Positions 8,805-22,460 of a DNA stretch of 27,146 nucleotides are shown here, piece by piece. The DNA comes from Blastopirellula marina (GTDB lineage: Bacteria > Planctomycetota > Phycisphaerae > Sedimentisphaerales > UBA12454). The notes beneath the pieces were generated by a model that saw only the letters and a list, made by a program, of their open reading frames with translations, was not told the DNA's origin and did not search any database. The translations under genes were made by a program, and so were the position numbers. The stretch is from contig DYLR01000012.1 in assembly GCA_020721975.1 (NCBI GenBank), forward strand, positions 1 to 27,146. Reading direction: 5' to 3'. Every line of letters starts with the position of its first letter. Positions within the stretch are counted from its first letter, which is position 1.

Positions 8805-10790
8805 CTACATTCCCGGCATCATTCCGGGCATCATCATACCCGGCATTCCGGGCATACCTTCCATACCGCCCGGCATTGTTCCCGGCTTAGGTATTTCAAA
8901 GCCGCGTCCGGGTGTACCGGCAGGCGTTCTAAATTCCACCGCCGCCTTTACCTTTTCCTGTAAATCTTTATAAGTCTGCAAAACGCTGCTCGGCCAGAAT
9001 CGCTCGCCTATCGCCAGACTTGCAAGCTGTTGAGGATTATAACTGTACACAGCCGAATAGTATTCCTGCTGTTTTAACCCCTTTGACGCATCCCAGTCGT
9101 TCACTTTGATTACATCAACCAGTATCGCACCGGTTGTATAATCAATTTTTTGAGGTTCACTGCTGCCGTAGCCAGAGGCGCCGTCGGATGTCGTGGTTTC
9201 CTCGACATATTTGCCTATCATTTCGCCGCATTTAACCGGGAAATCCTTTGCCGACCATCGACCCAGATGATACTTCATTACCTCGATTGTGGCGGTTTTT
9301 GCAGGGTCGCGCCATTCTTTGGGGAACAGGTGCATTCGCAAAGGCGTTTTAATGGGTTCGGTCGGAACAGAGAATTTGCTCCAGAGTATCACCTCGCTAT
9401 TAAGCTGCTGCTGTTCTTCCACAACATAATTTTTGCCGGCCACCGGATTAAATACGCCCGCACGAATTCTGTACTGATATTCTTTCCCGCTTTCGGTTGT
9501 ATCATCATAAGCCCAGACAACGACCTTTTTGAGATTTTCGAGTTTATTTCTTTCATCCAGTTTCAGGCTTAAAAATTCATTCTCGATTTTCTGTATGCCC
9601 GTTGAGTCAAAATCGCTTTGGCCGGTTCTTTTCGATACAGACGGTTCTGTGCGTCTGATTTGCTCGGCAGGCTGTGTTCGGACTCCGGTCTGACGCGTCG
9701 GCGCGGCAGGCGTCATTCCCCCCGGCCCGCCCATACCCATGCCGGGCATTCCCATTCCGCCCATACCCATATCCGGCATTGCTCCGCCTGTGCCTGTGCC
9801 TCTTATAGATGTTGTACGGGTTTCCCGTGCGGAAGTGCGGCGGTTGCGTTCTTCTATTCTTGCGCGTTTTTCCGCTTCAAGCTGTTCGCGTTTGCGGGCT
9901 TCTTCCTGTTTGGCTATCAGCTCCTCACGGGTTTTCCAGAGTTTCGGGCAAAGCCACTGTGTCCCCGGATATGCGTAATTGTAAACCGCCGGCTGCAAAA
10001 TCTCCTTCTGATACTGCTCGGCGCCGAAACTTATAAGTACTATATCCATATTGACCTTCAGCTCGTCTATGCTGTGCGGCACAGCCAGTTCTTTTTGCAG
10101 GGGAAAATTCCGGGCCTCCGGCACAGGCGCCCACTGACTCCATTGACCGTCTTCGAGCTTTTCCCGTCTTTCAAGCTGAACATCGGCAAATACCGGCCTG
10201 GCATACCGCTCGTCCCGCCATTCCTTGCGCACCGACGCCGCGGCAAAACTTTCCCGGAATTTCCTGGCAATACCCTCAAAATCAACCGTACACTGCACAC
10301 TAACCAGGTCGATATCGTTTAAGTCTGAAGTATCCTGTGAAAACGATGCATTCGGATTCAGCGGGTCGTCGGGTATATGTGTTACTATCTGCACCATTGC
10401 CGCGTGAACGTCGTTCACGTCCGGAATATCCGGCAAGTGATATTTTCTGTCTTCAAGACTTACCGTGCCTTCATCATAATAAGGCAGACTCATCGTTTTT
10501 GACAAATCCACGCCTTTGATGCTTTTGCTGATGTTTTCGGCAAATAATTCGCATTTAGGCACAAAATTTCCGGCTCGATTCGGCTCGCCGCGAATCTGCT
10601 CATAGAGTTTGTCGGCTTTTGTGCTGATATACCGGTCTATTTCGCCCGGGGCGCGAGGCCTGCCGTCAACTTTGACCGCGGGCGCACGAAGCACATTAAA
10701 AAATATTATCACAAGACTGATAATTACCGCTATAGCGATAACCGCCTTATCCAGATATTGTTCAAATATACTGCTTTTTTTTCTGCTCAT
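8805..10790 (-). CDS. Membrane-anchored protein (N-terminal TM helix) with a large extracytoplasmic region, a coiled-coil segment and Met/Gly/Pro-rich tracts. The tracts are an internal MPDMGMGGMGMPGMGMGGPGGM and a C-terminal tail ...MPGGMEGMPGMPGMMMPGMMPGM-stop. It is the third gene of the PilMN-fusion cluster.
   Basis: The 661-aa ORF has a hydrophobic helix at aa ~16-36, a charged coiled coil ELIAKQEEARKREQLEAEKRARIEERNRR, and low-complexity MGP tracts. The DNA carries 9-nt ccgggcat-type repeats at 8808-8900 and 9716-9790. Confidence 0.65.
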   Translation of the reverse strand: MSRKKSSIFEQYLDKAVIAIAVIISLVIIFFNVLRAPAVKVDGRPRAPGEIDRYISTKADKLYEQIRGEPNRAGNFVPKCELFAENISKSIKGVDLSKTMSLPYYDEGTVSLEDRKYHLPDIPDVNDVHAAMVQIVTHIPDDPLNPNASFSQDTSDLNDIDLVSVQCTVDFEGIARKFRESFAAASVRKEWRDERYARPVFADVQLERREKLEDGQWSQWAPVPEARNFPLQKELAVPHSIDELKVNMDIVLISFGAEQYQKEILQPAVYNYAYPGTQWLCPKLWKTREELIAKQEEARKREQLEAEKRARIEERNRRTSARETRTTSIRGTGTGGAMPDMGMGGMGMPGMGMGGPGGMTPAAPTRQTGVRTQPAEQIRRTEPSVSKRTGQSDFDSTGIQKIENEFLSLKLDERNKLENLKKVVVWAYDDTTESGKEYQYRIRAGVFNPVAGKNYVVEEQQQLNSEVILWSKFSVPTEPIKTPLRMHLFPKEWRDPAKTATIEVMKYHLGRWSAKDFPVKCGEMIGKYVEETTTSDGASGYGSSEPQKIDYTTGAILVDVIKVNDWDASKGLKQQEYYSAVYSYNPQQLASLAIGERFWPSSVLQTYKDLQEKVKAAVEFRTPAGTPGRGFEIPKPGTMPGGMEGMPGMPGMMMPGMMPGM

Positions 10791-10868: not shown

Positions 10869-12125
10869 TCATATTCCGGTGTTTTCCGTCGCCGTTTCTG
10901 CCGTCGGCGTTTCCACCGGCTGATTCAGGCTGCTCTTCACTGCGTCAGGTTTTATTTTATCATATCCTGCGCGAACAAAAACATATTCGCAGACGCAGGT
11001 AAGCTCGACCACAGGCTTTTTGCCGTAGCGATAAAGCCGGTGAGCCTCGCTTTCCCTGTCCGCTGCGTAGCTTTGTATGCCCATAACGGTAATCTGATTA
11101 TGCACAAACTGCTTTTCAGGTTCGTCGCCTTTATATCCCCTCCAGACGTGCTTTTTTTCACTGCAAAGCTCGCTGATAAAATTCATAACCTGGTCTGTCT
11201 CGACGACTACACCCACGGCAAAGTGTACTACGTCAATCGTGTCGTTGCACAGCCTTGTTGTCCACGCATCGGCAAGGCCGCCTGTGAAGCTGGTAACATA
11301 TACAGGCATTTGAACCTTCGCCTGCTGCTCGCGTGCCGTGCTTTCCGGTGCAGTTGCCATAATAATGGTGCTTTCAAAACTTACGCCGAGCAGTCTTTTA
11401 ACCGGCGATTCGAGTACGTTTTTGGCCTTGCTGTTAATTTTTATAATCGTATCGGCCAGGTCCTGCTGTATCCACCAGGCCAGTTGTGTGTACCAGCAGT
11501 CCTGCACGGCTGCATCGACCCCGGCATACTGCCAGTCCAGCCAGATCTCATAACCGACAAAGTTATCCGTTCTGGCATAACATTTTATACCCAGCGCCTT
11601 CTGCTTGCACAATTCGTTAATTATTGCCTCGGTATTGTCTGTCTGGTCTGTACCGCCGTATCTGAATGCGTCTCTGGCCGTGCTTTTACTGCCGGTGGCA
11701 AACTCGATTTCCCTGCTTGTGGGAGCTTCACCGGACTGCATTTTCTTAGGCAGCTCTTTAAATGCTTTCAATGCATTTTCGCCAAAATCGCTGAATATCT
11801 GCCGCGAAGTTTCCTGCGGTTTCGGAAAAATTTTATAACTTAAAAGTTCCCTTTGCGTTGTCTGGGCGGCAAGTTCAGCCACTTTATTGGCGTCCTGCGC
11901 GGCTTTATCCTGAATTTCCTGTTCAACCTGCCACTGCTGCATGGATACCGGATTTCTGCTGATAGAATCGATCCTGTCGGCCAGTGAAACGCTTTGCTGC
12001 ATCATTTTGGCCAGTCCGCGTTTACCTGTGAATACCAGCAGTCCCAGCAGTACCGCCACAAGCACAAGACCGGCCGGTATCAGCAGCATAATATTCTTTC
12101 TGATAAAATTTTTTATAAATTTCAT
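10869..12125 (-). CDS. Membrane-anchored protein (N-terminal TM, coiled coil, then a globular domain). By position it is PilO/GspM-like in the cluster, but its function is unknown.
   Basis: The 418-aa ORF has a TM helix LLIPAGLVLVAVLLGLLVF near the N-terminus followed by a Q/E-rich coiled coil. It is co-oriented and tightly spaced with the flanking cluster genes. The plus-strand ORF 11040..11843 is judged an antisense shadow. Confidence 0.55.
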   Translation of the reverse strand: MKFIKNFIRKNIMLLIPAGLVLVAVLLGLLVFTGKRGLAKMMQQSVSLADRIDSISRNPVSMQQWQVEQEIQDKAAQDANKVAELAAQTTQRELLSYKIFPKPQETSRQIFSDFGENALKAFKELPKKMQSGEAPTSREIEFATGSKSTARDAFRYGGTDQTDNTEAIINELCKQKALGIKCYARTDNFVGYEIWLDWQYAGVDAAVQDCWYTQLAWWIQQDLADTIIKINSKAKNVLESPVKRLLGVSFESTIIMATAPESTAREQQAKVQMPVYVTSFTGGLADAWTTRLCNDTIDVVHFAVGVVVETDQVMNFISELCSEKKHVWRGYKGDEPEKQFVHNQITVMGIQSYAADRESEAHRLYRYGKKPVVELTCVCEYVFVRAGYDKIKPDAVKSSLNQPVETPTAETATENTGI

Positions 12126-12140
12126 ATTATGTTAGAGCCT

Positions 12141-14480
12141 TTAAGATTGCGTCTGCTCAGGCATCTGCGGCGCATCCCGCCACAGCAGCTTGATTTTAAT
12201 CCTGAACCATTTGTCGCGCACAATATATTTGGGTTTTTTGAATACGTCATATATCGGATTGCCCTGCTGGTCGAGCTGTACCGACCGGCTGATTTCTTCC
12301 TTTGTCATAGGGTCGATAAGTATTTTTTCAGATGAAATCTGCTCAAAGCCTCTGCCTCTGGTTGAGGTGCTGCCGCGGCCTGTCGCCGGCGAGGTTGCGG
12401 CCGGTGTAGTTTCGCCGTCGGCGACTTTTATATCTTCCACGCCTATGCCTTCGGGCATCGGCACATCAATAGCCACATCCCCTGTCTCAAGCACCCAGTG
12501 AGCCGGCATACCCCTGCCGTAAAGTTCAAAAGGACTGTTGCCGTCGATGAGCTTGTCAAGGTTCGCCAGACGTGTAAGAAATCCCCATTTGCTTTTATTG
12601 TCTCCGACACCTGCGGGGTCAAGCAGCTCATCTATGTCCATATACGGGCTGTATCCTTCGATAACAACTGTAAAGCCCGGTCCGCTTTTCTGGCCCGGCG
12701 CTTCAAGCGACTGATCTGTACTGCCGGAATAACCCTGAGTCTGAATTTTTCTGGCCGATTCTCCGCCTCTGCTGCTGCCTCCGCCGTACCCCCCGGGCGC
12801 CCCCATCGGACCTTCAAAACCGCCAGGCCCCATCATACCTGGACCCATCATACCAGGTCCCATCATACCAGGCACTGCCATACCGCCTCCGGTGGTGCTT
12901 CTGGTTGATTCTCTCGTGGCAGTCTGGCCGAACTGAGCGCTTGCAACATTCGATGCAAAGTTAATTTGAATGCCGGTAACAAATATCTGTTTGCGTTCTT
13001 TCCGGGGTATTGATTTAACAGCCTCAACGTCGCCTTCCGCGAAAGCCTTGTAAAGATTGCTCTGCTGAGGATTGTTTTCCGCGTTCGGCAGACACATTGC
13101 AATGGTCTCGTGAATTTGCGGTATTATCTGGCGGTACTTGAACAAATCGGAATATCTGTTTATTTTCTGCTCATATTCGCTGCGGCGGTTTTGTTCCTGC
13201 TGGAATTTATTTTGTGCCTCCTCGGCCTGACTGAGAATATTTTCAACTCTGCGGCGATACTCCTGCGCATCCTTGCTGTAATAGGCCTTTTTCTCAATTC
13301 CGGTTTTTACCATACTTATCAGCATTGCAGCCACAAGCAGACCGGCCGCTATCACCAGATACAGCGATTTTTGCTTCCACGTCATACTTAGCGCAATTTT
13401 TCGCGGCAAAAGATTCGTTTGCACTTTGGCCAAACCAAGAGCCTGCAGGCCGAGACCATAAGCTATACCCATATCGCAAATGTTTTCGTGCATCTGGGCG
13501 GCAGAAACATTTTCCGCGGGCTTGAGTTTGTCGAATGACTCCGGCTTAATGACGGGAAGCTGGAGCGTTTGCTGCAGGAACTTTATTAAACCCTGCATTT
13601 TGAATCCGCCGCCCATCACGATTACCTTTGTGAAATCCGTCTTTCTGTGGCTGCTGCTGTAAAAGCCTAAACTGCGCTGAATTTCTGCCGAGAAATCCGT
13701 GAACACCGGCCGCATTGAATGGAATATCTGCCGGGCATATTTGCTCATCGGCGCAGTGCGTTTGAGTTTTTCCGCCTTGGCAAAATTCAGCTTAAATGCG
13801 TCGGCCACCGCCCGTGTGAACGAATTTCCGCCAAGCGGTATTGTTCGCTGCCAGACTGTGTTTTGAGTACAGACCACAAGATTGGTGTTCTCCGTACCCA
13901 TATCGAGAATGATTATCGCCTTGCTGTCATCCTGGGGCATGTCGTTACGGTCGTAATGCGCATAATTATAAAGAGCCATCGGCCCCATCTGCACCACCGA
14001 CACCCTGATGCCCTCTGCGCTGAAATTTTCAAGAAAATCGTTGATAAGCTCGTTCTTAATGGCAAAGATTCCAACCTCAGTATCGGGACTGTCCGACTTT
14101 TCCATTATCTGCCAGTCCCACTCGACCTCGTTGATGTCGAACGGTATCTGCTGAACAGCTTCAAATTTAATTATCTCAGGAATGCGTTTTTGCTCGACAG
14201 GCGGAAGTTTGATAAATCTTGCAAAACTGCTCTGGCCCGGCACTGAAATCGCCGCGGGGTCCTTCTTCAGGTCGTTGCGGGCAACAAAGGTACTCATCGT
14301 TTCCTGCATCACCGCGGTCTTTTCCTCCGCGGATACTTCCTCACCGCTGAGCATCTTTGAATGCTCAATATAGTCAAAACCGATTACCTGTACGCCATCC
14401 GCCGTCGGAAGCATACGCAGGGCCTTTAACGAATTACTGCCTATATCGATCGCCCAGACCGACCGCATTGCTGAGGCCAT
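12141..14480 (-). CDS. PilM-like actin-fold ATPase domain fused to a PilN-like TM + coiled-coil segment (GspL-like architecture). A ~400-aa C-terminal extension follows, containing (GPGMM)3 and a distal globular domain.
   Basis: The N-terminus AIDIGSNSLKAL (phosphate-1), IILDMGTENTNLVV and VIVMGGGFKMQGLIKFLQQTL match PilM ATPase-fold motifs. After aa ~360 come a TM helix SLYLVIAAGLLVAAMLISMV and a PilN-like coiled coil. Further on is MAVPGMMGPGMMGPGMMGPGGFEGPMGAPGGYGGG. A GGAAGG SD lies 4 nt upstream of ATG 14480. Confidence 0.75.
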   Translation of the reverse strand: MASAMRSVWAIDIGSNSLKALRMLPTADGVQVIGFDYIEHSKMLSGEEVSAEEKTAVMQETMSTFVARNDLKKDPAAISVPGQSSFARFIKLPPVEQKRIPEIIKFEAVQQIPFDINEVEWDWQIMEKSDSPDTEVGIFAIKNELINDFLENFSAEGIRVSVVQMGPMALYNYAHYDRNDMPQDDSKAIIILDMGTENTNLVVCTQNTVWQRTIPLGGNSFTRAVADAFKLNFAKAEKLKRTAPMSKYARQIFHSMRPVFTDFSAEIQRSLGFYSSSHRKTDFTKVIVMGGGFKMQGLIKFLQQTLQLPVIKPESFDKLKPAENVSAAQMHENICDMGIAYGLGLQALGLAKVQTNLLPRKIALSMTWKQKSLYLVIAAGLLVAAMLISMVKTGIEKKAYYSKDAQEYRRRVENILSQAEEAQNKFQQEQNRRSEYEQKINRYSDLFKYRQIIPQIHETIAMCLPNAENNPQQSNLYKAFAEGDVEAVKSIPRKERKQIFVTGIQINFASNVASAQFGQTATRESTRSTTGGGMAVPGMMGPGMMGPGMMGPGGFEGPMGAPGGYGGGSSRGGESARKIQTQGYSGSTDQSLEAPGQKSGPGFTVVIEGYSPYMDIDELLDPAGVGDNKSKWGFLTRLANLDKLIDGNSPFELYGRGMPAHWVLETGDVAIDVPMPEGIGVEDIKVADGETTPAATSPATGRGSTSTRGRGFEQISSEKILIDPMTKEEISRSVQLDQQGNPIYDVFKKPKYIVRDKWFRIKIKLLWRDAPQMPEQTQS
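12828..12872. repeat. Three perfect or near-perfect tandem 15-bp units (cccatcatacc[tggag]) encoding GPGMM x3 on the minus strand.
   Basis: The units cccatcatacctgga, cccatcataccaggt and cccatcataccaggc are read directly from the sequence. Confidence 0.8.
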
Positions 14481-14612: not shown

Positions 14613-15908
14613 ATGATTTTCTATGCCATACATACCTTCGGCTGTAAAGTCAACCAGTACGAGGGACAGCAAATCGCCCAGCTTTGCGATAATTTAGGCC
14701 TAAAAAAGGCCGATAACTGCCAAAATGCCCAAGTCGTTATCGTGCATAGCTGCTGTGTTACCAGTTTGGCATCTGCCAAATGCCGTCAGGCAATAAATCG
14801 AACAAAAAAACTCAGCCCCAATGCCGCGATTATCCTTACCGGATGTCTGCCTAAAGCCAATTTGCCGGAATTGCACAATCTTGGCAATATAAGGCTTGTC
14901 GGCAATATACACAATCTGAATAAAGAAATCAGCGAAATTGTTACCCACCCAGAATTTTATATTAAAACAAAAACTGAACATAAAATCAATGAAAAAAGGG
15001 ATTTGCCGCAATTAGAGCCGCTAAAATCCTTTACCGGCCATACAAGGGCATTCTTGAAGGTTCAGGACGGCTGCGATGGTTTTTGCAGCTACTGCATCGT
15101 GCCGTATGTTCGTAAAAATATCTGGTCGAAACCGCTTACCGATGCGGTAGCAGAAGCGCAACATCTTGTCAGTTCAGGACATAAAGAAATTGTTCTCAGC
15201 GGCATTCATCTTGGCGCCTATGGCCGCAGCAGCGTTATTCGCAAAGGGTGGGATGAAAAGGATAGACTGGCGGAACTCGTCAAAACTGTTGCACAAGTAC
15301 CTGGTCTGGAAAGACTTCGGCTCAGTTCCCTTGAACCCGCTGAACTTAGCGATGCTCTGCTTGATGTAATAGCCAGCTACAAAAATATTATGCCGCACCT
15401 GCACTTGTCTCTCCAGAGCGGGTCTGATACTGTTTTGGAGTCAATGAATCGAAAATATTCCATTGGTGATTTTTTAAAGGTTGTTGAAAAGGCGAAATCA
15501 AGATTGGACAGGCCGGCAATTACAACGGATATTATTGCAGGTTTCCCGACAGAAACCGATGAAAATTTCGAGCAAACAATGAATATAATTGGCCGGGTGG
15601 GTTTTTCGAGAATTCATGTTTTTCCGTATAGTATGCGAAAGGGTACTGCCGCTGAGAAATTTGGGGATACGGTATCTGCCGCTGTAAAGCGGGAAAGAGT
15701 AAATCAGATTAAACAGCTCGGCTCTGAACTTGCCCGGAAATTTGCCGCGAGATTCATAGGCGAAAGGGTAACTGTTTTAGTTGAGGATGAGAAAAATCGC
15801 ACAGGTCTTTGTGAGCGATATTATACTATGAGAGTTCTTGGCAGGCCTGTTCAAAAAGGCCAGATTATCACCGGCACAATCCAGCCGGACGGCTGGTCAA
15901 TTCTTTAA
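14613..15908 (+). CDS. mtaB: Radical-SAM methylthiotransferase of the MiaB/MtaB family, most like MtaB (tRNA t6A37 methylthiotransferase).
   Basis: The N-terminal UPF0004 domain IFYAIHTFGCKVNQYEGQQI resembles MtaB. The radical-SAM CxxxCxxC cluster (GCDGFCSYCIVPY) and a C-terminal TRAM-like region are present. Length is 431 aa. Confidence 0.75.
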   Translation: MIFYAIHTFGCKVNQYEGQQIAQLCDNLGLKKADNCQNAQVVIVHSCCVTSLASAKCRQAINRTKKLSPNAAIILTGCLPKANLPELHNLGNIRLVGNIHNLNKEISEIVTHPEFYIKTKTEHKINEKRDLPQLEPLKSFTGHTRAFLKVQDGCDGFCSYCIVPYVRKNIWSKPLTDAVAEAQHLVSSGHKEIVLSGIHLGAYGRSSVIRKGWDEKDRLAELVKTVAQVPGLERLRLSSLEPAELSDALLDVIASYKNIMPHLHLSLQSGSDTVLESMNRKYSIGDFLKVVEKAKSRLDRPAITTDIIAGFPTETDENFEQTMNIIGRVGFSRIHVFPYSMRKGTAAEKFGDTVSAAVKRERVNQIKQLGSELARKFAARFIGERVTVLVEDEKNRTGLCERYYTMRVLGRPVQKGQIITGTIQPDGWSIL

Positions 15909-16323: not shown

Positions 16324-16962
16324 ATGAAACGTGCAAGGACAGGGCAATACGTTGCGATATCGACAGTCGGCAAAAAGGTCAAGGCGTTTATTCCTGATGC
16401 GCTGCCGCCTGTACCGGCTCTTGAGATTTCGCCCAATTTGCAGGAATCCATCGACCGTGCGTTATTGGCTCTCGGCAGATTAGACAGCATTTCGATACTT
16501 TTGCCGGACATGTCTTTATTTCTTTATATGTATATCCGCAAGGAAGCTGTGCTATCCTCACAAATTGAAGGTACGCAGTCTTCGCTGTCGGATTTACTCT
16601 TGTTTGAGATTGATGCCGCTCCGGGCGTTCCGCTTGACGATGTGCAGGAAGTATCGAATTATGTTGCTGCGATGAATCACGGCCTAAAGAGGATACGCGA
16701 AGGATTCCCTGTTTCTGTACGGTTAATCAAAGAAATTCACAATGTTCTACTTTCCAGGGGCAGGGGCAGCAACAAAGAGCCTGGGCAGTTCCGCAAAAGC
16801 CAAAACTGGCTCGGCGGTACAATATCTGGCAATACGGTGTTTGTGCCTCCTCCGCCGGGCGAAGTGGCACAGTGTATGAGCGATTTGGAGAAATTTGTTC
16901 ACGATAAACCGCAGAAAATACCCACGCTGATTAAGAGCCTATCGAGCATAGCGCTGAATTGA
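16324..16962 (+). pseudogene. Fic/DOC family protein, 3'-truncated. The N-terminal ~210 aa are present, but the ORF stops just before the HPFx(D/E)GNGR active-site motif.
   Basis: The sequence ...EGTQSSLSDLL...GQFRKSQNWLGG...FVPPPPGEVAQCMSDLEKFVHD...IPTLIKSLSSIALN-stop follows the conserved Fic N-terminal layout. The next expected element (HPFxDGNGR) is absent in all three downstream frames. Confidence 0.55.
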
Positions 16963-17886: not shown

Positions 17887-18582
17887 ATGAAAAAGACTTA
17901 TTTGGGCATTTTAATGGTTATGCTGGTTGCGCTGCTGACAATTTCAGTATTCGCACAACCCTGGGGCGGCAAAGAAAGGCATGGTAAAGGCCCCGGCAGT
18001 CCTGACAAGCCCCCTATGCCTGCAGGTCACGGCGGCGGAGTTGAAATGATTTTGCGAATGAAAGACAAGCTCGGCCTGACCGACGAGCAAATAACAAAAC
18101 TTCAGGCGCTAAAGCCGCAGGATGAACCGAACAACAGAGAGTTAATGAAGGAAAAACACCAGGCACTTCAGGCTGCTATCGAGTCCGGCGATAAGGATGC
18201 AATACGTACGGCTGCTGCTGCAATCGGAAATGCCATCGGTGAACGGGCAATCAAAGCAGTGGAAAACAAGGCCAAAGTCGATTCAATTCTGACCGATGAG
18301 CAAAAGGCGACTCTCAAGGAAATGAAAGAGAAAAGACAGCAAAAAATGAGGGAAATGGCTGAAAACGAACAAGGTCGACCTGGACCAATGGGTCGCGGCC
18401 CCGGCGGATTTGAAATGGGAAACGAACAAAGACCGGAACCTGCAACAATATTCGCCAGAATTGATACCGACGGTGACGGCTCTATCAGCTTTGAGGAGTT
18501 CACCGCCCACGTTGGGAAAATGGAAGAGCATCGCGGGCGTCCCGGTCCTGCTGCCGAAACTGAAGACAGCATCGAAAAGTAA
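17887..18582 (+). CDS. Secreted/periplasmic protein with a signal peptide, LTXXQ (Spy/CpxP-like) motifs and a C-terminal EF-hand calcium-binding loop.
   Basis: MKKTYLGILMVMLVALLTISVFA is a signal-peptide-like N-terminus. LTDEQITKLQAL and LTDEQKATLKEM are LTXXQ motifs. DTDGDGSISFEEF is a canonical 12-residue EF-hand loop. Confidence 0.7.
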   Translation: MKKTYLGILMVMLVALLTISVFAQPWGGKERHGKGPGSPDKPPMPAGHGGGVEMILRMKDKLGLTDEQITKLQALKPQDEPNNRELMKEKHQALQAAIESGDKDAIRTAAAAIGNAIGERAIKAVENKAKVDSILTDEQKATLKEMKEKRQQKMREMAENEQGRPGPMGRGPGGFEMGNEQRPEPATIFARIDTDGDGSISFEEFTAHVGKMEEHRGRPGPAAETEDSIEK

Positions 18583-18648: not shown

Positions 18649-19002
18649 TTATTGGCCGTATTCGGTCGTCCAAAAATTGATAAATTGTGTGTAATCTGCA
18701 AAATCCACGCGCATATCGCCGTTGAGGTCGCAATTATTCGGCATTGTCTCACTGAGCCAGTTTTCAGTCAGTATAATAATATCCCCGTAATCCAAAGAGC
18801 CGTTTCCATCAAGGTCGTAAATACAAACCGGCGACTCAATGGATAATTCAATTATGCCCATATCAGGCAGGGCATTATATTTGATGTACATTAAACCGTC
18901 TTTTGAAACAACCTCGGCAGTTTGTTGTGTTTGCCCCTGTTTGAACGTTATATTCTCCGATGCCCATTCCGGCGGACAGTCGGTAAGCAACGTAAGCGGC
19001 AC
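18649..19002 (-). pseudogene. Orphan dockerin-type repeat domain fragment (two Ca-binding DxNGDG-like loops). There is no signal peptide and only a GTG start, so it is probably the C-terminal remnant of a larger secreted protein.
   Basis: The ORF carries DLDGNGSLDYGD and DLNGDMRVDFAD dockerin-like loops. The 117-aa ORF has no ATG start and lies next to a palindrome-rich scar region. Confidence 0.4.
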
Positions 19003-19146: not shown

Positions 19147-20331
19147 TTATTCGCGGGGGAATACTAATCGCCTGTAAAGTGCTTCAATTTTATCGACCAT
19201 TGTTTTGGGCGAGAACATATCTTTGACAAGTTCTCTGCCGTTTTGGCCGAGCCGGTCGCGCAAAGATTTATCTTCAATCAGCTCAACACAGGCTTTTGTG
19301 AGCTGCTCAATATTTTTTGGCTTGATAAGTCTGCCGGTGTTTTCATTCACAACTTCCCTGTTGCCGTCAACATCAAACGCAATTGTAGCCTTACCGCAGA
19401 GCATAGCCTGCGGCAAAACGCGTGCAAGTCCCTCACGCAACGAGCAATGCACAAGAATATCCGAGGCCTGCAACACAAGCGGAATTTGCTGCGGCGGTAC
19501 AAGGCCTGTAAAACGAAATTGATTCTCAAGTCCGGCCGATTTTATCCGCTGCTGTAAATTGTTTTTCAATAAACCGTCTCCGACAAAAAGCCAGACCACA
19601 TTCGGAAACTGCTTTGCAATAGTTTTGGCCGACTCAATAATGTATTCGTGTCCCTTGAGATAAAACAATCTTCCTATCGAAATAAGCACAACGGCATTAC
19701 TGGGAATATCGTGTTGTTTTCTGAATGCGGCAATTTGCTCCTGCGGCACAGGTGAAAGAAACACGTCTTCATCAATGGCCGAATATGCGGTAGTGAACAT
19801 TTCAGGCCTGCCGATTCCCTCGGCAAGCATCTGCTGTGTCATTGCATCGGCAACAGAAATAAAGGCATCGGTATATTTGGCTGCGTATTTTTCAATCGCC
19901 ACGAAAAGTCTGTTTTCGAGCCGGTTTTGATATGGATGAAACGCAAGGCCGTGAACGGTATGAACTATAAACGGAGTTTTGCGTTCGTGGTTTTGCATTT
20001 TAATTTTACCGGCTGCGAGTCTGCCGAGAATGCCCGCTTTGGCCGAGTGCGTATGGACAATCTCCGGCTGCAATTTCTTCAATAATTTATAAATCTTTTT
20101 ATACGCACGCCGGTCCGGCAGCGGCCTGATTGGGCGAATCAGTTCATCTATAACGATGGTTTTGTATTTCGCGTTTTTGGTTTGCTCGAACAGCGAGCCT
20201 TCCGGCCCGACGGCAGGGCCTGTGATTAAAACGACATCGTGGCCGCGGGCGGCAAGCTCCCGGCAGGTAATCAGCGTGTTTTCCTGCGCCCCGCCGAGTA
20301 TTAAACGAGTTATAATGTGAATGATTCTCAT
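19147..20331 (-). CDS. Glycosyltransferase family 4 (GT-B fold, group 1).
   Basis: The 394-aa protein starts MRIIHIITRLILGGAQENTLITCRELAARGHDVVLITG, consistent with a GT4 N-terminal domain. The C-terminal half carries the GT1/GT4 E-x7-E region (ARVLPQAMLCGKATIAFDVDGNREVV). Confidence 0.75.
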   Translation of the reverse strand: MRIIHIITRLILGGAQENTLITCRELAARGHDVVLITGPAVGPEGSLFEQTKNAKYKTIVIDELIRPIRPLPDRRAYKKIYKLLKKLQPEIVHTHSAKAGILGRLAAGKIKMQNHERKTPFIVHTVHGLAFHPYQNRLENRLFVAIEKYAAKYTDAFISVADAMTQQMLAEGIGRPEMFTTAYSAIDEDVFLSPVPQEQIAAFRKQHDIPSNAVVLISIGRLFYLKGHEYIIESAKTIAKQFPNVVWLFVGDGLLKNNLQQRIKSAGLENQFRFTGLVPPQQIPLVLQASDILVHCSLREGLARVLPQAMLCGKATIAFDVDGNREVVNENTGRLIKPKNIEQLTKACVELIEDKSLRDRLGQNGRELVKDMFSPKTMVDKIEALYRRLVFPRE

Positions 20332-20591
20332 CGATTAGAATGTAGAATATAGAAGGTAGAAGATAGCATAAGAATAAATATTATATCACGATTCAATTTT
20401 TCAGGCCCGCTTCTTTTCTTGAATCCCTCTGCAATGTTTGCAGGTATGGAAATTGCTGCTCGTCTCAACTGGGAGGTTAAAGTAAACAATTCTTCTTTTG
20501 GAAAACCTTTGCTTAATTCATAAGTTGCCAAGACAAATTTGTGTGCTTTCTGCCAAACAAGTAAGTCTGTAAAATTTTTTGCTTTTTCCAT
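20328..20591 (-). pseudogene. Four-helix-bundle protein (23S rRNA intervening-sequence protein family, TIGR02436-like), truncated. Only ~62 N-terminal aa are homologous; the remaining 25 codons read through the inverted-repeat DNA.
   Basis: MEKAKNFTDLLVWQKAHKFVLATYELSKGFPKEELFTLTSQLRRAAISIPANIAEGFKKRS matches the family's conserved N-terminal half from memory. The tail GPEKLNRDIIFILMLSSTFYILHSNR is encoded by the TAGAA-heptad repeat. Its stop TGA overlaps the GT4 ATG (ATGA). Confidence 0.5.
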
Positions 20592-20658
20592 AAATCTCCA
20601 TACATTAGAGGCGATCTCATTTTCTTCTTATTCTATCTTCTACATTCTATCTTCTAAT
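20334..20658. mobile_element. MITE-like ~325-bp element bounded by imperfect terminal inverted repeats built from heptad NNTAGAA units. The left arm is 20334-20376 and the right arm 20625-20658. It carries a truncated four-helix-bundle protein gene and is inserted exactly between the truA stop and the GT4 start.
   Basis: The left arm reads attagaatgtagaatatagaaggtagaagatagcataagaata. The reverse complement of the right arm reads attagaagatagaatgtagaagatagaataagaa. The truA stop codon TAG (20654-20656) is formed by the terminal CTAAT of the right arm. The GT4 ATG (20331) lies 2 bp outside the left arm. Confidence 0.5.
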
Positions 20659-21442
20659 ACCTTATCCACATCAGGCACAGGCCGTGGGGCGGTGCGATTG
20701 GACCGGCAGACGAGCGGTTGCATGCCTTGAGAATTTTCTCCACCTTTTCAGGCTTATATCGTCCCCGGCCAACCTCGACAAGCGTACCTACGATATTGCG
20801 AACCATATTATATAAGAAACCGTCGGCCTCAACATCTATGCAAATCCAGGGCAAAGAAGACCGCTCATTTACATTCGCGGCTCTGTGGTAAGCATAGGAA
20901 ATTTCGGGGGCTGATTGCACATCGCATCGCAAAATCGTCCGTATGGAACTTGAGCGTTTATCCGCCGCCGAGGCAAAAGACTTGAAATCATGTTCGCCGA
21001 TTAAATACTGTGCTGCCTGTGCCATTACCGCAGAATCAAGTTTATAAGGGTAGTACCAGCAATAGTGTGCCTGAAGCACAGGTCTGTTGACGCCGGTGTA
21101 TATCCAGTAGCGATACATTTTGGATTTGGTGTTTTTAATCGCATCAAAGTCCGGCTTTACCTGTTCGGCAGATATTATCGAAATGCTCTGCGGTAATTTG
21201 TTATTAACCGCACGTGCGAGATTTTCGGTCGGCACGGGACAATCTATTTCAAAATGCGCCACCTGTCCCAGCGCGTGAACGCCTGCGTCGGTTCTGCTTG
21301 AGCCGAAAAGTTCAACATATTTTCCGGTAAGCTCGGCTATCGTGTTTTCAAGAACACCCTGAATCGTCGGGCGGTTTTTCTGTTTAGCCCAGCCGAAATA
21401 ATCCGTGCCATCATAAGCAATTGTAAGTTTGATTTTACGCAT
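20654..21442 (-). CDS. truA: tRNA pseudouridine(38-40) synthase TruA. Start placed at the internal ATG 21442 rather than the extended ORF start at 21610.
   Basis: MRKIKLTIAYDGTDYFGWAKQ...GSSRTDAGVHALGQVAHFE carries the conserved TruA catalytic Asp region. Length is ~263 aa. The 56-codon N-terminal extension of the long ORF overlaps asd and lacks homology. Confidence 0.8.
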   Translation of the reverse strand: MRKIKLTIAYDGTDYFGWAKQKNRPTIQGVLENTIAELTGKYVELFGSSRTDAGVHALGQVAHFEIDCPVPTENLARAVNNKLPQSISIISAEQVKPDFDAIKNTKSKMYRYWIYTGVNRPVLQAHYCWYYPYKLDSAVMAQAAQYLIGEHDFKSFASAADKRSSSIRTILRCDVQSAPEISYAYHRAANVNERSSLPWICIDVEADGFLYNMVRNIVGTLVEVGRGRYKPEKVEKILKACNRSSAGPIAPPHGLCLMWIRY

Positions 21443-21458
21443 GAAAGAAGCATACTTC

Positions 21459-22460
21459 TTACAGCAGCTTTTCTGCGATTTGTATCGCGTTGAGCGCTGC
21501 GCCTTTGCGAATCTGGTCGCCGACGACCCACAGATTGATTCCGCGATGCCCCTGAATCGATTCGTCTTCGCGAATCCTGCCGACATAAACGTCGTCTTTG
21601 CCGCCGGCATCTATGGGCATTGGGAAGCGATTATTGATTCTGTCGTCGATAATGCTCACGCCGGGCGCTTTTTCGAGCAGTTGGCGCACCTCGTCGGGAC
21701 TGATAGGATGTGTAAATTCAAGATTGATGCTTTCGCTGTGGGCTCGCAGCACCGGCACACGAACACAGGTGCAGGTAATGGCAATGTCATCGCAGCCGAA
21801 AATTTTATGGGTTTCGTGTACCATTTTCATTTCCTCGGCATTATAGCCGTTGGGGTATATTTCGCTGTCGTGGTTGAATAAATTAAACGCAATCTGATAT
21901 TTGAATTTTCTGCACACCGGCGGCTCATCATCGAGTATCTGCCGGGCCTGCTGCATAAGCTCAAGCATCGCGGCCTGGCCGGCTCCGCTGGCGGCCTGAT
22001 AGGTACTAATGACTATTCGCTTAATCGGATTGGCCTTGTGCAGCGGCCAAAGCGGCACATTGGCGATAATCGTCGAACAGTTAGGATTGGCAATAATGCC
22101 CTTATGTTTGAATATCTCCTGCGGATTGACCTCCGGCACAACCAGCGGAATATCAGGGTCCATACGAAACGCACTGGAATTGTCAACCACAACTGCACCG
22201 GCCTTTACCGCAGCAGGAGCAAATTGCTTAGAACGGGAAGCGCCGGCGCTAAAAAGAGCTATATCAATATTGGCAAAGCTGTTTTCGGTGAGCTGCTCAA
22301 CCTTGTAAGTCCTGCCTCTGAAGACAATTTCCCTGCCGACAGAACGCTCAGAAGCAAGCATTTTTATCGACTTAACAGGGAATGCCCGCTGTTCAAGAAT
22401 TTCAAGGAATTCCTGTCCAACCGCACCGGTTACACCGGCAATTGCAATATTCTTTACCAT
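21459..22460 (-). CDS. asd: Aspartate-semialdehyde dehydrogenase.
   Basis: The N-terminus MVKNIAIAGVTGAVGQEFLEIL has the Rossmann GxxGxxG. NPNCSTI carries the active-site Cys. Length is 333 aa. Confidence 0.85.
   Translation of the reverse strand: MVKNIAIAGVTGAVGQEFLEILEQRAFPVKSIKMLASERSVGREIVFRGRTYKVEQLTENSFANIDIALFSAGASRSKQFAPAAVKAGAVVVDNSSAFRMDPDIPLVVPEVNPQEIFKHKGIIANPNCSTIIANVPLWPLHKANPIKRIVISTYQAASGAGQAAMLELMQQARQILDDEPPVCRKFKYQIAFNLFNHDSEIYPNGYNAEEMKMVHETHKIFGCDDIAITCTCVRVPVLRAHSESINLEFTHPISPDEVRQLLEKAPGVSIIDDRINNRFPMPIDAGGKDDVYVGRIREDESIQGHRGINLWVVGDQIRKGAALNAIQIAEKLL

Follow-up and report, generated by a model that had tools for sequence, protein, structure and literature searches.

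What does a short, methionine-rich tandem repeat contribute to a protein that is otherwise recognizable as a PilM-like pilus scaffold? The question is raised by a 27,146-nt stretch of Blastopirellula marina DNA (assembly GCA_020721975.1, contig DYLR01000012.1, positions 1–27,146; hereafter the window), in which three 15-nt units at 12828–12872 encode (PGMMG)3 within a 779-aa PilM-like protein, the first product of an operon that also encodes proteins of 418 and 661 aa. A first-pass annotation, made from the letters of the DNA alone, had described perfect, slippage-prone (GPGMM)n repeats in a periplasmic linker, with a possible affinity for Cu(I) or Ag(I). Here, we compare the repeat, its host protein and the two partner proteins with those of related loci. 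Our preferred interpretation, to which we give somewhat less than even confidence, is that the repeat belongs to a set of repeat-generated, composition-selected, flexible hydrophobic segments that make weak multivalent contacts in a PilM-like envelope complex.

The repeat and the protein that carries it

The 779-aa gene and its parts are arranged as follows (AlphaFold2 confidence given as pLDDT, the predicted local distance difference test):

12141–14480, minus strand: 779-aa gene, cytoplasmic PilM domain followed by a predicted transmembrane helix, a putative long coiled coil and a putative periplasmic alpha/beta domain; Amuc_1101-like "PilMN-type" fusion, mean pLDDT 77
13443–14450, minus strand: PilM domain with an actin-like ATPase fold, cytoplasmic, residues 11–346 (Pfam, AlphaFold2, Foldseek)
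13305–13367, minus strand: predicted transmembrane helix, residues ~372–392, hydrophobic LYLVIAAGLLVAAMLISMV after Lys/Arg residues; predicted topology
12696–12908, minus strand: disordered loop L1, residues 525–595, pLDDT ~30
12789–12896, minus strand: Gly/Pro/Met-rich stretch around the repeat, residues 529–564, with (PGMMG)3 as its core
12828–12872, minus strand: (PGMMG)3 repeat, residues 537–551 of the 779-aa open reading frame (ORF) at 12141–14480, three 15-nt units
12342–12419, minus strand: disordered loop L2, residues 688–713, not Met-rich here

At the DNA level, Tandem Repeats Finder (TRF) places an array at 12823–12872 with a period of 15 nt, 3.3 copies, 88% matches and a score of 79; this is the top-scoring tandem repeat of the window, and the score is reached by 0/100 dinucleotide-preserving shuffles. 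The 45-bp repeat is real and non-random, but the units are not perfect as first described: on the coding strand they read CCT GGT ATG ATG GGA, CCT GGT ATG ATG GGT and CCA GGT ATG ATG GGG (minus-strand consensus CCN GGT ATG ATG GGN), and they vary at 2/3 degenerate codon columns and at 0/12 non-degenerate positions, so that all differences between units are synonymous. When synonymous codons were shuffled with the protein kept, TRF refound the array in 200/200 shuffles with a mean score of 74.8 ± 9.1, and 38% of the shuffles scored 79 or more. Since the synonymous shuffles score alike, the DNA repeat is a consequence of the peptide repeat; its regularity comes from the genetic code, which gives Met one codon only and leaves just the third base free for Gly and Pro. 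Counts of matching synonymous codons in pairs of units (4/9 vs ~3.1 expected from the codon usage of the gene) likewise give no surplus DNA identity that would point to recent duplication. Recent slippage was considered as the source of the array and is unsupported, the real gene scoring the same as its synonymous shuffles. The array also differs from the long, perfect short-unit tracts by which phase-variable contingency loci switch frame or expression, its unit being 15 nt and always in frame, and no RNA element or tRNA was found at the repeat site.

The host protein has a PilM domain followed by a transmembrane helix and a predicted periplasmic part, and the first-pass reading is supported to that extent. 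The domain is matched by Pfam PilM_2 (PF11104; 7.5e-38, 130.7 bits against a cutoff of 27, residues 11–346) and by TIGR01175 pilM (137.8 bits, over the cutoff of 133), and the best Foldseek matches to its fold are the PilM proteins of P. aeruginosa and T. thermophilus (TM-score 0.82–0.83, E down to 7e-26; TM-score 0.82 to PilM 5eou). No PilN model in Pfam or NCBIfam matches the 779-aa protein; the label "PilMN fusion" therefore describes an architecture, not homology. Matches to T2SSL/GspL are weak and under cutoff (22.1 bits vs 25.5; 16.5 vs 65).

The best NCBIfam match of the protein is NF045709, the Amuc_1101 family of PilM-like pilus complex proteins (E = 1.1e-75), although the equivalog level is not reached (255.7 bits against a cutoff of 650, with model positions 5–457/608 matched). 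The Amuc_1098–1102 pili-like cluster of Akkermansia muciniphila is thus the closest described system for comparison: the Amuc_1101 model covers the PilM domain, transmembrane helix and coiled coil of the 779-aa protein, and the cluster encodes an envelope complex of the Planctomycetes–Verrucomicrobia–Chlamydiae (PVC) superphylum with hypothetical secreted or bitopic partners (PMC5332112). The likeness has limits, in that the score lies far under the family cutoff, the 418- and 661-aa partners match no model and no secretin gene is adjacent here.

In the AlphaFold2 model, a helix spanning residues 360–463 precedes a strand-rich region at residues 500–767, and the transmembrane stretch lies within the continuous helix at residues 360–400. 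Because of the N-in orientation, everything C-terminal of the transmembrane helix would be in the periplasm; the PDB holds no sequence relative of this C-terminal half. L1 is modeled between strands 500–509 and 602–611, which lie in blocks of mean pLDDT 88–91 and correspond in position to the conserved motifs QIFVTGIQINFA and GFTVVIEGYSPY. Residues 525–595 fall below pLDDT 50 and average ~30, and L1 is the least conserved stretch of the orthologue alignment. As judged by the model, then, the repeat lies within an extended disordered loop on the periplasmic side, with a confidently predicted beta-strand at either end, and is not an inter-domain tether; its description as a linker is not supported.

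Composition, turnover and concordance of the variable segments

The three ORFs of the operon are co-directional on the minus strand, and the features of the second and third are:

10869–12125, minus strand: 418-aa bitopic protein, operon gene 2, without a Met-rich segment here
8805–10790, minus strand: 661-aa bitopic protein, operon gene 3, of an uncharacterised family, mean pLDDT 73
9609–9815, minus strand: disordered segment V1 of the 661-aa protein, residues 326–394, containing GAMPDMGMGGMGMPGMGMGGPGGM
9696–9800, minus strand: Met-rich internal stretch GAMPDMGMGGMGMPGMGMGGPGGM of the 661-aa protein, residues 331–365
8808–8936, minus strand: disordered C-terminal tail of the 661-aa protein, residues 619–661
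8808–8894, minus strand: Met-rich tail PGTMPGGMEGMPGMPGMMMPGMMPGM of the 661-aa protein, residues 633–661, followed by the stop codon

Both partner proteins start with a basic stretch and one transmembrane helix. Neither has a Pfam or NCBIfam match, their profile and sequence matches in the PDB are low-complexity noise only, and a Foldseek search of the PDB with the 661-aa protein returned only generic beta-sandwich matches (E > 0.02). The internal segment MGMGGMGMPGMGMGG and the tail MPGMPGMMMPGMMPGM of the 661-aa protein consist nearly of Gly and Met alone, with Pro in addition, and have pLDDT values below 50; local Met density in the three Met-rich segments of the two proteins is 22–34%. 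In the 418-aa protein, the corresponding variable region (residues ~141–170) is Met-rich or rich in hexapeptide repeats in relatives.

Met-rich repeats are present at both places named at first pass in the 661-aa gene, but the 9-nt period given for them is not general: the internal array has a period of 15 nt (MGMxG, 3.2 copies, 76% matches by TRF), and the tail is irregular, mixing MPG (9 nt), MMPG (12 nt) and MMMPG (15 nt), with TRF periods of 12 and 15. Nor is a codon-level logic common to the two genes, as had been proposed. Pro is encoded by CCT/CCA in the 779-aa gene and by CCG/CCC in the 661-aa tail (Gly codons are mixed), and the likeness is therefore at the peptide level. Gene conversion between the 779- and 661-aa genes, a candidate source of the common motif, is rejected for this window on the evidence of these Pro codons.

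To place these segments in a wider context, we used a comparison set of 89 related loci from genomes and metagenomes, with proteins aligned from up to 85 of them. The gene order 779-418-661 is preserved in every locus whose contig extends far enough (gene 2 in 73/89 loci, gene 3 in 60/89). Wherever the source is named, the 779-aa homologues come from Planctomycetota, mostly Phycisphaerae. In the databases searched, the nearest non-self relative of the 779-aa protein is 53–62% identical and its protein cluster has one member; the family as a whole gives more than 5,000 word-index matches and 12,153 representative proteins at E ≤ 1e-3.

Variable segments, defined as the poorly conserved stretches of the alignments, are about 4-fold enriched in Met. 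Pooled over 85 loci, Met makes up 10.8% of L1 against 2.5% of the structured remainder, 8.1% of the 661-aa tail against 2.0% elsewhere, and 6.6% of the 418-aa variable region against 2.0% elsewhere; His amounts to 0.2% and Cys to 0%. The composition is also specific to the operon, as Gly/Pro/Met low-complexity segments occur in 45/213 operon ORFs vs 7/432 neighboring ORFs, and 5 of those 7 lie in three loci recovered through the search pattern GMMGPGMM. The remark that Met-richness is unusual thus stands. The trait is not bound to one loop: homologues from Pirellulales and Isosphaerales have the Met-rich segment in L2, not L1, and these loci are uninformative on frequency because they were ascertained through the motif. 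One of them (L008:10162–14682, plus strand, a metagenome-assembled genome (MAG) of Pirellulales, biased in being found via the motif) encodes 683- and 778-aa proteins downstream of the PilM-like gene with several long Met/Gly/Pro segments and 6.2–6.3% Met overall; the second of them, in which one such stretch exceeds 100 residues, matches the 661-aa family weakly (E = 2.5e-7).

L1 itself, 22–84 aa long in 85 orthologues, occurs with Gly/Pro/Met tandem repeats such as PGMM, PGMGM and MPGMPG, or in an acidic Glu/Tyr/Met version, e.g. EYEYAMMMEAEMGMGRGMYEY, that is conserved like ordinary sequence among relatives 86–97% identical; a third version is taken up below. In the Gly/Pro-rich arrays, "PG" is followed by Met in 72% and by Tyr in 12% of cases, and a single array can alternate between GPPGY and GPPGM (P0079, P0080, P0093). 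Repeats of the GPGXX type are found in flagelliform and MaSp2 spider silk, and a Gly/Met-rich rubber-like sequence in abductin. The segments might by this likeness be elastic or entropic elements, rubber-like repeats forming a stretchable tether that spans the periplasm: GPGMM is of the GPGXX form, arrays akin to it read GPPGY and PGMGM, and the segments are Gly/Pro-rich and predicted to be disordered. We nevertheless regard this as the most remote of the explanations considered, since there are only ~3 units here, L1 is modeled between beta-strands of the same periplasmic region and does not obviously join two bodies, the acidic Glu/Tyr/Met version found in sister clades does not resemble an elastomer and the 661-aa tail is attached at one end only.

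The same composition bears on metal binding, the function put forward at first pass. In this explanation, Met thioethers in MXXM/MXM spacing would form a low-affinity, multivalent sponge for soft metals, periplasmic Cu(I) or Ag(I). Sequences such as MPGMPGM and MGMGGMGM do supply dense MXXM and MXM spacing in segments predicted to be periplasmic, and a GPGMMGPG repeat also occurs N-terminal to a cupredoxin (SoxE/CopI-like) domain at an actinobacterial locus, L009. That Met-rich domains bind Cu(I) statistically via many Met residues, Met-only sites being weak but cooperative, is known (PMC11840665), and the Met-rich regions of CueO, CopA/PcoA, CopI and Ctr1 are likewise extracytoplasmic and flexible with MXM/MXXM spacing (PMC11840665, PMC13308877). 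These known copper domains, however, combine Met with His or Asp (PMC11840665, PMC13308877) and belong to copper enzymes or transporters in copper-regulated operons. In the present segments, His and Cys are almost or wholly absent, and Tyr and Phe take the place of Met at the same positions of the repeat units. The protein that carries the repeat is a scaffold of the pilus type and not a metal protein; neither the window nor the set of conserved neighbors (MtaB, GH2) includes cop, cus or multicopper-oxidase genes, and no copper-related Pfam domain is present in the 20 window ORFs or those neighbors. Metal-binding low-complexity regions are, moreover, His-rich in a prokaryotic survey (PMC6821194). 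Taken together, these points make metal binding very unlikely. The actinobacterial locus just mentioned (L009:7974–8699, plus strand, Actinomycetota MAG) encodes a 242-aa protein with GPGMTGPGMMGPGQWGPGMMGPG repeats before a cupredoxin (sulfocyanin/CopI-like) domain.

A role as an oxidant sink or redox switch, in which exposed periplasmic Met would be sacrificially oxidized or its oxidation would tune self-association, has as little to recommend it in our view. It would suit three segments of 22–34% Met that are predicted to be periplasmic and disordered, and it has precedents in the periplasmic Met-rich MrpX with YedY/MsrP (PMC4436054) and in the control of condensates by Met oxidation in yeast Pbp1 (PMC8394241). 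MrpX is, like the present segments, a bacterial periplasmic Met-rich polypeptide (PMC4436054), but it is small, soluble and co-regulated with YedY/MsrP and a stress sigma factor, whereas here the Met-rich parts belong to membrane-anchored proteins of 661–779 aa. No msrP/yedY, msrA/B or stress sigma factor gene is found within the window or among conserved neighbors, the relatives are mostly Phycisphaerae MAGs or metagenome contigs of presumably sediment, anoxic origin, and the replacement of Met by Tyr does not fit a sulfur-specific role.

The segments turn over rapidly between close relatives. The genes of L021 and L025 share 98.6% DNA identity, and of the 51 differing positions (mismatches plus gapped columns of the alignment), 27 are located in just two 60-nt bins, those containing the array; the array of L025 is a perfect (CCT GGT ATG ATG ATG)x3, that is (CCTGGTATGATGATG)x3, and that of L021 an interrupted version. 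Among the 418-aa relatives, (GFQDPR)x6 in L042 stands at the same site as (GFPGSR)x7 in L072, a clear case of concerted evolution. This array (~residues 150–230 of the 418-aa orthologue) also contains GLPGSR/GIPG variants, and the co-operonic PilM-like genes are 86% identical. Other 418-aa proteins differ in (GRSGMM)n vs (GRSGML)n or in the number of GPSM units, and unit or copy-number changes are also seen in L019 vs L034 and L047 vs L049. The arrays are signatures of in-frame repeat expansion, contraction and homogenisation. The in-frame length variation anticipated at first pass is accordingly found at family level, both in the 22–84-aa range of L1 and in L021/L025, but the array of the window is imperfect and shows no sign of recent duplication. 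As in the variable-number coding repeats of surface proteins, the loci of the relatives contain in-frame 9–18-nt units that differ in copy or sequence between close relatives and are homogenised within an array; unlike in classical contingency loci, there are ~3 imperfect units here and no frameshift switching.

The segments of the two proteins also resemble each other more within than between genomes. Smith-Waterman scores of L1 against the 661-aa tail average 35.0 for same-genome pairs vs 26.5 ± 1.3 for permuted pairs (n = 32, <80% identity, p ≤ 1e-4), and the similarity persists at <65% identity (n = 13, p = 0.004); L1 and the internal 661-aa segment behave alike in the same-genome comparison. 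Shuffling the residues within each segment reduces the excess from 8.8 to 2.1 ± 0.9, and because this removes most of it, the signal lies in local motifs and not in bulk composition alone. The agreement can be read directly in single genomes: L068 has KMYEMMMGGGGPGGPK in the 779-aa loop and KMLQMMMGGGGGPGGK in the 661-aa tail, L002 has PGMMGPGMMDPGMM and GPGMMGPGMMEPGMMGPGG, and L057 has EEEMMDEEYMRQMEEYGMM and EEYEGMMDEEYMMMEDMGM. Before phylogenetic correction, Met fractions co-vary as well (raw Spearman r 0.49–0.57), and by independent contrasts the Tyr and Arg fractions correlate at r = 0.60 and r = 0.50, respectively. The Met-rich tail is kept in 661-aa orthologues of only 27–34% identity. 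We take the concordance as moderate evidence of a common constraint on the segments.

Neighboring genes and other features of the window

Upstream of the operon, in divergent orientation, lies a gene that is conserved together with it:

14613–15908, plus strand: MtaB tRNA methylthiotransferase (TIGR01579, 405.8 bits vs a cutoff of 357)

MtaB divergently adjoins the PilM-like gene in 69 related loci, and GH2 is sometimes among the conserved neighbors. A functional tie of the operon to this conserved radical-SAM gene was considered and rejected as the default, NCBIfam identifying a bona fide MtaB; the conserved head-to-head arrangement has no obvious functional link.

Further features of the window are listed here as observations:

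16324–16962, plus strand: 212-aa ORF with Fic_N and a partial Fic domain (profile positions 2–55/93)
17887–18582, plus strand: 231-aa LTXXQ (Spy/CpxP-like) protein, EF-hand at the C terminus, short Gly/Pro-rich stretch GRPGPMGRGPGGFEMGN
18649–19002, minus strand: 117-aa dockerin/EF-hand-like ORF adjoining the 231-aa LTXXQ gene
20328–20591, minus strand: 87-aa ORF of the 23S rRNA-intervening-sequence (four-helix-bundle) protein family (PF05635, 4e-22)
20343–20378 and 20621–20656: inverted repeats of 36 nt with TAGAAGA heptads, 89% complementary, flanking the 87-aa ORF
20654–21610, minus strand: truA ORF, 318 aa
21459–22460, minus strand: asd ORF, upstream of truA

The 212-aa Fic ORF is probably truncated or degraded, to go by its partial profile match. 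The 87-aa ORF, whose neighbors on either side are truA and a GT4 glycosyltransferase gene, covers only profile positions 2–60/106 and is probably truncated too; with its inverted repeats, the element at 20328–20591 looks like a small cassette of the intervening-sequence type outside rRNA. The truA and asd ORFs overlap by ~150 nt, the first ~70 residues of truA precede the apparent start of the conserved pseudouridine-synthase sequence and the best Pfam stretch is residues 199–318, and the real truA start is probably further downstream.

A proposed role as flexible hydrophobic segments, and the case for neutral filler

In the interpretation we prefer, the loop with the (PGMMG)3 core would protrude from the periplasmic part of a PilM-like fusion protein of the inner membrane, and the 661-aa product of the same operon contributes two further segments of this kind, its internal one and its C-terminal tail. 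The segments would be built and remodeled in frame as short coding repeats are gained, lost and homogenised, presumably through slippage or unequal recombination. Selection would act on composition, namely a flexible Gly/Pro backbone with hydrophobic Met, or Tyr or Phe at those positions in some lineages, and the exact sequence and copy number would be free to drift. By analogy, weak multivalent hydrophobic contact would be the most likely role, and the partners may be (i) the many copies of the loops and tails in an assembled envelope complex or (ii) hydrophobic clients, e.g. pilin-type N-terminal helices. Such a mode could be likened to that of the Gly-Met tails of GroEL and the thermosome and of the G/F regions of Hsp40s.

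The comparison with chaperonin tails is the closest of these on the level of composition and flexibility. In a survey of ~1,500 representative prokaryotic proteomes, low-complexity regions rich in Gly, Met and Phe are typical of chaperones, and those rich in His of metal binders (PMC6821194). In GroEL, the tails require flexibility plus Met hydrophobicity (PMC11978752). Gly-Met tails populate polyproline II (PPII)-like conformations (PMC12571646) and make contact with substrates or, by interweaving, stabilize the ring (PMC6821194 and references therein). Like the present segments, the GroEL and thermosome tails are short, flexible, disordered or PPII-like and consist nearly of Gly and Met alone, there in many copies per ring oligomer, and their function comes from flexibility and Met hydrophobicity, not from an exact sequence (PMC11978752, PMC12571646, PMC6821194). 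The segments of the operon differ in also containing Pro, in being periplasmic, not in a cytosolic folding chamber, and in one of them being an internal loop; they are lineage-variable and dispensable, and their hosts are a PilM-like scaffold and a bitopic partner, not a ring-forming chaperonin. A second comparison is with sticker-and-spacer low-complexity domains, of which FG nucleoporins and the YG domain of PEX13 are examples. The Met-rich low-complexity domain of Pbp1/ataxin-2 resembles the segments in that Met, Tyr and Phe stickers are spaced by Gly and Pro and composition is conserved, not sequence (PMC8394241 for Met). These domains are eukaryotic and far longer.

The main competitor is that the segments are neutral filler, i.e. 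that a permissive loop and tail gather low complexity made by slippage and that Met-richness is an accident spread by repeat expansion and shared ancestry. We consider this somewhat unlikely, but several observations agree with it, and some of them count at the same time against the interpretation we prefer. Met clusters occur in only 21/122 full-length family representatives (17%; an unbiased set with <50% mutual identity), all of them in the periplasmic part and 0 in the PilM domain; the Met-rich trait is recurrent and compartment-specific, and it is also dispensable. Many orthologues have Met-free loops, the third version of L1 being a Ser/Thr/Arg/Gln loop without Met that is typical of whole clades near the window. 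L1 varies from 22 to 84 aa, the arrays change faster than the remaining gene, and the phylogenetically corrected Met correlation is weak: by independent contrasts, Met fractions of L1 and the 661-aa tail give a borderline r = 0.27 (p = 0.05), and once the set is dereplicated at 80% identity, the binary Met-rich association no longer reaches significance (Fisher p = 0.27). Because the Met-fraction correlation shrinks and the binary test fails, the claim of co-variation rests on motif similarity, and clade structure is not fully removable from the concordance tests. The structural statements rest on AlphaFold models; within the window there are no genes for a pilin, PilN/O/P/Q, PilB/C, an ATPase or a secretin, and the conserved neighbors of the PilM-like gene are confined to the 418- and 661-aa genes, MtaB and sometimes GH2.

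Since the trait is dispensable, neutral filler stays plausible. Four observations speak against it: (i) Met, a single-codon residue, shows ~4-fold enrichment in several loops and tails of different proteins that are independent of one another, and the loop concerned differs between classes; (ii) the differences between units are synonymous only; (iii) the acidic Glu/Tyr/Met version EYEYAMMMEAEMGMGRGMYEY is conserved like ordinary sequence; and (iv) the motif concordance of two proteins is hard to obtain neutrally without gene conversion, against which codon usage speaks.

A more far-reaching extension, which we hold to be unlikely, is that loops and tails co-evolve because they function jointly as a single material, a "methionine-bristle" lining or gel in the periplasm within a PilM-like envelope machine specific to the PVC superphylum. 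Such a lining would hold a ring together or shield hydrophobic helices, e.g. pilin N-termini pulled from the membrane, as a periplasmic counterpart of GroEL tails, of the methionine bristles of SRP54 or of FG/YG selective phases, and lineages would retune its "dialect" (Gly/Pro/Met, Glu/Tyr/Met or Gly/Pro/Tyr) via repeat turnover.

Chaperonins are the textbook case of flexible segments rich in Gly and Met, and low-complexity domains rich in Met have been described in eukaryotic condensates and in copper proteins. In the literature searched, we found no description of Gly-Met-rich segments in bacterial periplasmic secretion- or pilus-type scaffolds. The modestly novel element is their new place, in periplasmic loops and tails of a widespread, uncharacterised planctomycete PilM-like operon. 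If the concordance does not reflect physical interplay, the repeat would be an ordinary hypervariable coding repeat in a surface loop. If it does, the segments would provide a bacterial example, amenable to experiment, of disordered interaction modules that evolve fast and are encoded by composition, and a first functional handle on a widespread planctomycete envelope operon that is related to the Amuc_1101 cluster.

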